IMG/VR virus record: IMGVR_UViG_2534681835_000036
DNA length: 17,342 nucleotides
Direction: 5' to 3' (one strand)
Origin: a virus
Lineage: Duplodnaviria; Heunggongvirae; Uroviricota; Caudoviricetes
Position numbers: made by a program. This document shows positions 1 to 3,000 of the stretch, one piece after another; positions within the stretch are counted from its first letter, which is position 1, and every line of letters begins with the position of its first letter.

Positions 1-3000
1 ACCCGCAAACCACACTTCCCTTTAAAACGCGTAACATACATTGCCTGCGTTTAACTTTCTTTGAACTCTTGCAGAAAAATGAGAATTCGTGAGTACGATC
101 ACTCAAAATCGCCTGGCAAAAATAAAATCACCCTATAGATGCACAAAAAACGGGCAAAACTACCTGGTTCGCAAAACTGCGTCTAAAGTTAAACCGGGAC
201 CTCGCGAGCAAGGGTGAGACGATGGCGCTTTACACAATTGGTGAAGTGGCGTTGCTTTGTGATATTAACCCTGTCACGTTACGCGCGTGACGCAACATTT
301 TTAAAAATCGACGAAGATCGTCCAGGAGCGCCGTTTTTCAAGGGTTGGATAGATGATTCGTTTACCATGTCGATGAACTTCGACGAATTTCGCCGATAAA
401 AAGTGTCCCATACATGCCCCATTGATGCCCCATAAACAATATCAGGAATTGACACTGGTTATCCATACAGATAAAAATAACACCTGTACATAACTACAGT
501 TACAGGAGGGTGTTATGCGCGTTGAGATCTGTATCGCTAAAGAAAAAATCAGCAAAATGCCAAAAGGTTCTGTTCCTGCCCTGCAACAAGAAATGCTACG
601 CCGCATAAGTAAGCGATATGACGATGTGGACGTGATTGTCAAAGCAGCCAGCAATGACGTTCTCACCATTTTAAGAGTCGTCGATAAAGAGTCTGCTCAA
701 GAGTTCGTTCAGGAAACGCTGCAGGAAGTCTGGGAAACAGCGGATGACTGGTTTATTCAATAATGAGAATATAATCACTGTACTCAGTCATCTTATTTGT
801 CAGAATTACAGTTGACGTAAAAACCTTTACACATGGTTAGCTACATTACTGTTTCGGGGGAGCTGTTCAGCTCCCCATTTTTTTATTGCATCATTACGGC
901 AGCCATTGCACAGAGCGTTACCACCGTGCCCAGCCACACAAAAAGCATGAAACACATCGCACCTGGTACATCCGGCTTCTCCGGTGTGTAGAGCGTGAAG
1001 TTTTTAAAATTATTCATTTACTGTTTAACTAATTTTCAAATCCTGTGTAACACCTGTCTTTTTCATTGCCACTATAAAGGCCGAACCAGGAGTCCCTTGC
1101 CAGTAATAGTGAAGGTCATTGATAACGCTGTTGTAAGTAAACACTTGCGAAACGCCGCCAACGGTTACTGTAATATTACTTGCTCTCCCTCCTGCAATGT
1201 ATAAAGCCGCCGTAGGTGGAACACCTGTAATGAAGTGGGCTTGCGTAAGCACAATTCCCACCAAACGGCCTAAGCCACAGTTCGAAGCACCTGTAATTGT
1301 ACCTTTGTTCTTTTCAGCCAATGGCCAATCTGAACCTACAGCCCCCCAGTTTTCGACTTTATCAGGAGGATTCCCTTTATAGTAAGCGGTCGCAATTTTA
1401 CACCCCATAGATCGTCCCACCATTTGACTCATCATAAAAGGTTTACCCAATCCCAGTTTAGTACCGGCAGCCCCCATCCATTGCTCGCCTGTTTCGCTCT
1501 TAGCCGAAGAACCAACCCATCCCGATGTTACCCCCATCTCATCTCCCCTTCTGAATGCGTGGGGTGAGTATCACCCCCACAATTTAAATTCAGTAGAAAC
1601 CAGAAACTCCAACAGCTGTCGTTTCGTTTACTTCTCCCTGAGCTCTTTAATCTCATGACGAAGTGCTTTAAAGCCTTCTACTAACAGTGCAATTATGCCG
1701 TTGTAGTTAAGACGCAGACGTTTTTCACCAGATATCATGTCGTCGTCTTCAGTTACCAGTTCAGGCAATGCTTTTTGTGCATCCTGAGCAATTAAACCAA
1801 CCGACATTTGCCAGCCGTCGGCAGAGTACTGTATCTCATAAAGATAACCAGTCAGTGCTTCCAGACGATCTAACGCATTATCCAGCTTTACCAGATTTCG
1901 CTTGTTGCGTTTATCCGAGCGGATCTGAACGTCGTTAAATGAGCCGTTTCCGGTTACCGTCAAATCGCCATTAATAGTTTGTGGTTGAGTCCATGTATTG
2001 GCTGAAGCAAGCAGTTCGGTTCCTCCGGGGTCACCTTTATCGCCTTTCGCTCCCGGTTCGCCTGCCGGGCCGACAGGACCAGCTACACCCTGTGGCCCCT
2101 GAGGTCCCCGCTCTCCCGCCGGTCCCTGTGGGCCTGTAGGTCCTGGCTCGCCCCTGTCACCTTTAAGTCCCTGTGGACCGGGCTCACCTCTTGGCCCGGG
2201 TTCACCCGCGGGTCCGGTTTCGCCAGCAGGTCCCTGAGGACCGGGCTGCCCCTGAGGACCAGCAGGTCCGGGGTCACCTTTATCGCCTTTCGCTCCCGGT
2301 TCGCCTGCCGGGCCGACAGGACCAGCTACACCCTGCGGCCCCTGAGGTCCCCGCTCTCCCGCCGGTCCCTGTGGGCCAGCAGGACCCGGGTCTCCTTTGT
2401 GCCCCGGTTGACCCGCAGGTCCGGCTTCGCCTGTCGGCCCTCTCTCTCCGGCAGGACCCGGTGGTCCCTGTAATCCCTGTGGCCCCCGCTCACCGGGTTC
2501 GCCTTTTTCACCGGCAGGGCCAGCAGGTCCGGTATCGCCTTTAGCGCCTGTGTCACCTTTCGGCCCCGGCGGGCCGCCAGGGTCGCCCTTTTTCTCCTCT
2601 GGCACCGGTTTCACCACGGGGACCAACCGGACCTGCCGGCCCCTGAATACCCTGCTCTCCTCGCGGCCCCGCCGGTCCGGTTGCACCAACTGGCCCCTGT
2701 ATCCCCTGTTCACCACGTTCACCCCGTGGCCCCGCGGGTCCGGTTGCTCCTGTCGGGCCTGCCGGGCCCTGTACCCCCTGAGGTCCCGGCTCACCCTTAT
2801 CTCCCTTTGGCCCCCGGGCATTCGCCGCCTTTGCCTCCGCCGCCTCCGCACCACGCGCCGCCGCTTCCGCGCGCGCCAGAGTTTCCGCGGCCGCGGCCTC
2901 CAGTTCGACCAGCGCCTTCGGGTACGCCGCCGCAGTCTCTTCATTCAGCAAAAACGTATTCAGTGTCCCCGGTGCTGATTCAGCACTGACGGTGATGTTT

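Follow-up and report, generated by a model that had tools for sequence, protein, structure and literature searches.

A side tail fibre gene split at a homopolymer run in a draft prophage contig of Escherichia coli and its intact counterparts

The fibre gene and its surroundings

The window, i.e., the whole 17,342-nt stretch of DNA that was analysed, carries a group of tail genes in which the tail tip gene J, a moron gene, lom, a side tail fibre gene and the gene of a Gp38-like tail fibre adhesin follow one another in this order, all on the minus strand (Table 1). The Gp38-like gene is intact and lies directly downstream of the fibre gene, and the identical protein occurs in many genomes. Elsewhere in the window, an antirepressor gene (Ant) and two small Arc-like genes are inserted between the tail genes K and L, an insertion that is common in EHEC lambdoid prophages.

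Table 1. Positions and strands of the features discussed in the text, numbered over the whole window.
Feature	Position	Strand	Remark
Gp38-like tail fibre adhesin gene	1025..1537	-	170 aa; PF21721; phrog_1121
Side tail fibre gene, whole	1628..3218	-	split into the two parts listed below
3' continuation of the fibre gene	1628..2590	-	+1 frame, open up to the stop at 1628
Shaft direct repeat, two copies	2024-2215 and 2267-2458		192 nt, spacing 243 nt
5' ORF of the split fibre gene	2553..3218	-	221 aa and stop
Codon P217	2569-2571		interruption GGP-P-GPK
Homopolymer run A5 (T5 on the plus strand), indel 1	2589..2593	-	one base more than every orthologue (A4)
lom	3293..4024	-	between moron gene and fibre gene
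Moron gene	4129..4745	-	split into ORFs 4129..4599 and 4584..4745
Indel 2	4592..4596	+	A5 against A6 in 8E and the IMG/VR relative; splits the moron gene
J	5048..8122	-	truncated tail tip gene
Allele-switching zone	6812..9241	.	at least 10 switches between 8E prophage sites 1 and 2, no novel alleles
Ant gene and two Arc-like genes	9730-11325		between K and L
T ORF	15668..15949		entered by the -1 frame from G
G gene	15973..16347		tail assembly chaperone
G/GT slippery heptamer A AAA AAG	15976-15982	-	just before the stop of the G gene
Indel 3	17329..17330	+	CC, where two 8E prophage copies read CCC; puts gp17 (tail completion) out of frame

In the sequence as given, the fibre gene is read in two frames. 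The 5' ORF begins with MTVKISG and encodes the prophage tail fibre N-terminal domain, an Ala-rich segment and Gly-X-Y triplets 1–25, after which 11 residues out of the Gly-X-Y register precede the stop. The 3' part encodes the rest of the triplets, a short non-collagen tip and a Peptidase_S74 intramolecular chaperone domain. The frame changes directly after codon K210, at a TTTTT on the plus strand that reads AAAAA on the coding strand, in the context ...GGA GAA AAA GGG CGA CCC.... When one A was removed, a single 1,590-nt ORF of 529 aa was obtained, whose product showed 100% identity with the protein that the unbroken gene of E. coli O111:H8 strain 8E encodes. The split is therefore genuine in the sequence as given, and constitutes a definite difference from every relative rather than a chance pattern. 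An earlier reading of the sequence alone (hereafter the sequence-only reading) had given the position, strand and length of the run correctly, and its claim that the Gly-X-Y repeats resume in the +1 frame agrees with the open frame found downstream.

The repaired protein was matched in Pfam by phage_tail_N (PF08400, residues 1–133, E = 1.7e-38), Collagen (PF01391, E = 1.3e-42) and Peptidase_S74 (PF13884, residues 434–489, E = 4e-11). Residues 1–90 matched the PDB 9e7m chain 'Tail fiber protein' (E = 8.4e-29) and residues 413–528 matched 6f45, 'Long tail fiber distal subunit' (E = 1.8e-12), and the fibre gene was assigned to phrog_366, tail fiber (E = 1.5e-122). The N-terminal domain, the position after J and lom with an adhesin gene next, the shaft and the C-terminal module that mark an Stf-type gene were all found, and the earlier identification as a side tail fibre is upheld by the PF08400 domain and by the location downstream of J and lom. 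As judged from its sequence features, the repaired gene would encode a lambda Stf-type side tail fibre with a predicted trimeric collagen shaft and a C-terminal folding/receptor module. Given the domain matches and the gene order, it is a mosaic side fibre composed of a lambda Stf anchor, a collagen shaft and a self-cleaving C-terminal chaperone, with a separate adhesin. Such fibres need the S74 intramolecular chaperone module for folding; the frameshifted gene would yield the anchor and 25 triplets only, without the C-terminal module.

The collagen part of the repaired protein consists of 27 triplets (G136–P216), one extra residue (P217) and 61 further triplets, 88 in total. P217, seven residues downstream of the frameshift, creates a one-residue interruption of the Gly-X-Y pattern that is kept in all the intact orthologues and in the Stx2 phage 86 fibre, and because of this conservation it is regarded as a natural collagen interruption, which may act as a kink or hinge in the shaft. 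The possibility that this register break was a second, compensating frameshift was considered and ruled out, since it is conserved in intact orthologues and in Stx phage fibres. The shaft also contains a direct repeat whose copies are 82% identical overall, with a 129-nt core of 94.6% identity. One relative has a fibre of only 499 aa (30 aa less), pointing to variation of the shaft length through recombination between repeats.

Run length among relatives

The full-length orthologue was found as one 1,590-nt CDS in three complete E. coli genomes, namely O111:H8 strain 8E, FHI_NMBU_11 and UTAK-6. In the alignment, the three genomes read GAG-AAAA-GGG where the window reads GAGAAAAAGGG, and the proteins are collinear. 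The four-base run was found together with an intact fibre gene in 11 independent records, with identities of 94.9–99.98%. These records comprised the three complete genomes, one IMG/VR contig, one metagenome contig and six further NCBI assemblies, the last gathered via loci encoding the identical Gp38 protein. The relatives carry a single fibre ORF of 529 aa (499 aa in the shorter one), and the split arrangement was present in none. The comparison with intact orthologues advised in the sequence-only reading thus returned a single unsplit gene with A4 in every case, and the run-length heterogeneity across isolates that had been suspected was not seen (A4 in 11/11 other independent records). In a pattern scan allowing A3 to A6, one match was obtained in viral contigs and one in metagenome contigs, both A4, with none in the genome species representatives and A5 in no set scanned. 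Similarly, none of 5,426 complete E. coli genomes matched a 91-nt query over the site with A5 at 100% identity, and the exact A5 string was found solely in loci from the source draft of the window. The 438-aa ORF created by the frameshift is recorded in one contig from one sample, out of 153 billion gene positions. An exact-sequence look-up was also made for the 221-aa truncated product and for the intact 8E protein, and neither was in the collection.

The constancy of the run among the relatives speaks against phase variation at a contingency tract and against a conserved recoding site. Under such an explanation, the A-run would be phase-variable or would allow +1 slippage, ribosomal or transcriptional, and some full-length fibre would still be made from the split gene. 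The P-site tRNA-Lys could re-pair from AAA to AAG after a +1 shift, and a Shine-Dalgarno-like GGAG can be read in the sequence 2 nt upstream of the AAA codon; together with the A-run it is, as we take it, loosely reminiscent of the prfB +1 site. However, the GGAG and the run merely encode R-G-E-K and are present also in intact genes that need no shift, the A site holds neither a stop nor a rare codon, and the 11 A4 relatives are all unsplit. A +1 recoding signal made up of the GGAG and AAA-G was rejected, as these nucleotides are found in unsplit genes as well and the split is absent from every relative. To our knowledge, a run of five bases is shorter than the known phase-variable or transcriptional-slippage tracts. 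The length polymorphism and long tract typical of phase variation were not found (A4 in the 11 relatives, tract of 4–5 nt), and neither was the pattern of a programmed frameshift or slippage site, the relatives being single-ORF and the site offering no canonical +1 motif in which a stop or a rare codon occupies the A site. Recoding or phase variation at the run was therefore considered extremely improbable.

The draft contig and the finished genome of strain 8E

Once reverse-complemented, the window agrees letter for letter with the terminal 17,342 nt of AIGJ01000049.1, stopping 1 nt from the contig end. AIGJ01000049.1 is a draft contig of 196,793 nt from assembly GCA_000249875.2, and it is the only contig on record that encodes the window's truncated J protein. 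The draft is presumably a 454/Illumina hybrid. Its strain was approached through the accession numbers of the DEC series, in which DEC8B is GCF_000249815.1 and DEC10E is GCF_000250075.1 (PMC7693793); a step of 20 per strain places GCA_000249875 at DEC8E. The serotype of DEC8E is O111:H8 (PMC5121400), and the series of finished genomes includes 'O111:H8 strain 8B' and 'strain 8E'. We infer that the draft represents E. coli DEC8E, O111:H8. On account of the accession spacing, the DEC8E serotype, the sister record '8B' and the sequence identity, rather than of a statement in the record, the draft and the finished genome CP077465.1 (O111:H8 strain 8E) very probably come from the same strain.

When positions 1–6811 of the window were compared with CP077465.1, no substitutions and two differences were found, both of them single-base homopolymer indels. 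The first is the T5 of the window against T4, which breaks the fibre ORF that is intact in 8E, and the second splits the moron gene, whose 203-aa product ('membrane associated protein', phrog_425, WP_033800934.1) is encoded between J and lom and is likewise intact in 8E. The third indel, in gp17, is located 13 nt before the draft contig ends. The adjoining chromosome (5,053 nt, btsS to yehQ) is 100% identical in the draft and 8E. Thus, 3/3 indels fall in homopolymers and each disrupts an ORF that is unbroken elsewhere, with no substitutions in 6,811 + 5,053 nt (11.9 kb of unambiguous sequence). In the same chromosomal flank, yehQ (SWIM zinc finger protein; locus L012, 3646-5401, beside the window) carries a frameshift annotation in the finished 8E genome, and the draft has the identical sequence at this place, so that this frameshift, unlike that of stf, is common to both assemblies.

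The remainder of the window departs from a single 8E locus. Left of the allele-switching zone the window equals 8E prophage site 1, and right of it the window is nearly equal to site 2, alleles of sites 1 and 3 being scattered through it. From 9242 to 17342, 10 substitutions and one indel separate it from the second 8E prophage; 4/5 substitutions in the L gene are site-1 alleles, 2/5 near the right end match a third 8E prophage, and 4 of the 10 match no 8E copy compared. The regions of mixed alleles (6812-9241, 11561-11902 and 15572-17312) involve at least three paralogous 8E prophages. This patchwork of the tail module more likely represents a chimeric consensus of collapsed repeats, as suggested by the many allele switches, the alleles of a third copy and the contig end inside a repeat. 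A real recombination or inversion between prophages, joining 8E site 1 to site 2, seems less likely, though an inversion would agree with the opposite orientation of the two sites. The verdict on the frameshift is unaffected by the choice between recombinant and chimera.

The extra A is in all probability a base-calling or assembly error and not biology. Independent sequence of the same genome or of near-identical ones does not contain the A5 run, and the homopolymer indels of one base, each of them ORF-breaking, are in excess over the substitutions (3 indels in all; 0 substitutions in 6,811 + 5,053 nt). Taken together, the homopolymer indels, the zero substitutions, the mixed paralogue alleles and the contig end in a repeat are the signature of a consensus or base-calling problem in repeated prophage DNA, and the mixing of alleles from at least three paralogous prophages fits a consensus confused by repeats. 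Gene-fragmenting homopolymer indels are a known assembly artefact (PMC12007338). We infer that a base-calling or consensus error of homopolymer length in the 2012-era draft AIGJ01000049.1 would have added one A to the run. In the organism, the fibre gene would then most probably be intact, encoding 529 aa with an N-terminal tail-attachment domain, an Ala-rich segment, a collagen-like shaft of 88 triplets with one conserved interruption, and a tip akin to phage S16 gp37 that carries the S74 intramolecular chaperone, the gene of the Gp38-like adhesin being next. Three origins had been offered in the sequence-only reading; the sequencing or assembly indel is the one now favoured, slippage-prone variation is unsupported, the other 11 independent records all having A4, and a true pseudogene is unlikely. 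The same reading had named another run length giving a single ORF as the observation to set against the split, and this is in effect what the finished 8E genome contains, with A4 and an intact gene of 529 aa.

An error could also have arisen if reads from the paralogous collagen fibre of a co-resident Stx-type prophage, with an in-frame GAA AAA GGA (A5) at the homologous place, had shifted the consensus towards A5. The Stx2 phage 86/FWSEC0005 fibre does have A5 in frame there, three places in 8E match the fibre region, and the consensus clearly mixes paralogous prophage copies elsewhere in the window. Nevertheless, the flanking differences of the paralogue (GGT for GGA, GGAGACCCC for GGGCGACCC) were not imported into the window, for which reason contamination is not favoured, and the 91-nt segment is single-copy in 8E at megablast level. 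This unlikely route would itself be one form of artefact, and the biological conclusion would not change.

A real and very recent frameshift, in which replication slippage inserted an A in the sequenced stock and inactivated the side fibre of a defective prophage, was judged quite improbable. The prophage is indeed decayed. The J protein has 1,024 aa instead of ~1,158 aa, without the C-terminal Ig_GpJ_C part, unrelated sequence replacing the gene from ~5257 downwards. Draft and finished genome alike lack the J C-terminus, and J with this truncation carries a pseudogene annotation in 8E and FHI_NMBU_11, so the defect of the prophage is real and selection on stf could be relaxed. Homopolymer runs are, moreover, natural indel hotspots, and a precedent exists in laboratory lambda, which is without side fibres through a stf frameshift (PMC12617516, citing Hendrix & Duda 1992). 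On the other hand, the A5 allele is a singleton, no further decay is seen in the 963 nt that follow (100% identity with the intact orthologue), and the finished genome of what is apparently the same strain has A4. The other two ORF-breaking homopolymer indels nearby, with no substitutions in 11.9 kb, render a true pseudogene unlikely; three such indels in 17.3 kb would be implausible for natural divergence. Neither reproduction of the frameshift in independent sequence (that of 8E being apparently of the same strain) nor secondary decay downstream was observed. It was regarded as very unlikely, too, that A5 is truly present in the DEC8E culture (e.g., in a subpopulation) and that the A-run is a slippage-prone on/off point for cryptic-prophage side fibres, perhaps partly rescued by a low-level +1 shift at AAA-G after GGAG.

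With an artefact as the preferred explanation, the significance of the split is mainly one of quality control. The draft, taken at face value, would add a false stf pseudogene and two more within the same 17 kb, affecting any catalogue that deals with prophage decay or with the diversity of tail fibres in O111:H8 STEC. When intact, the gene is nothing unusual within the mosaic fibre family, and the frameshift, if real, would be only one further recent inactivation in an already defective prophage.

Comparison with known systems

The closest parallel to the extra A is found in the homopolymer errors of draft and long-read assemblies treated by Kastor (PMC12007338), in which the same change of one base splits a gene that is intact in near-identical references. 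Clustered events without substitutions, a draft contig, the vicinity of the contig end and repeated prophage DNA are shared with those errors, whereas the errors here are confined to the prophage part, the 5-kb chromosomal flank being clean. A frameshift within the phage tail gene cluster is also expected at the slippery heptamer of the G gene, where the predicted programmed -1 shift would produce G/GT. Unlike the stf split, the G/GT site has a canonical slippery heptamer and a two-ORF layout kept in every relative; stf has neither.

The collagen fibres of Stx phages (Stx2 phage 86 orf21, and the fibre and adhesin of phage P13374) share ~93% nucleotide identity over the collagen segment, together with the conserved GGPPG interruption, the S74 chaperone C-terminus and a downstream adhesin of the Gp38 type. 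They differ in belonging to short-tailed phages with another N-terminal anchor, while a lambda-type Stf N-terminus in a lambdoid long-tailed prophage is present here. Compared with lambda Stf/Tfa, the fibre described here has a collagen-like shaft and a tip like that of phage S16 gp37 with a Gp38 adhesin. The stf frameshift that distinguishes laboratory lambda from Ur-lambda concerns a gene of the same class, likewise located downstream of J and lom, with a homologous N-terminal domain (PF08400; PDB 9e7m). In both cases a one-base frameshift gives two ORFs, and in lambda it abolishes the side fibres (PMC12617516). The lambda mutation, however, is real and was reproduced by independent sequencing and genetics, whereas in the present case independent sequence reveals an intact gene.
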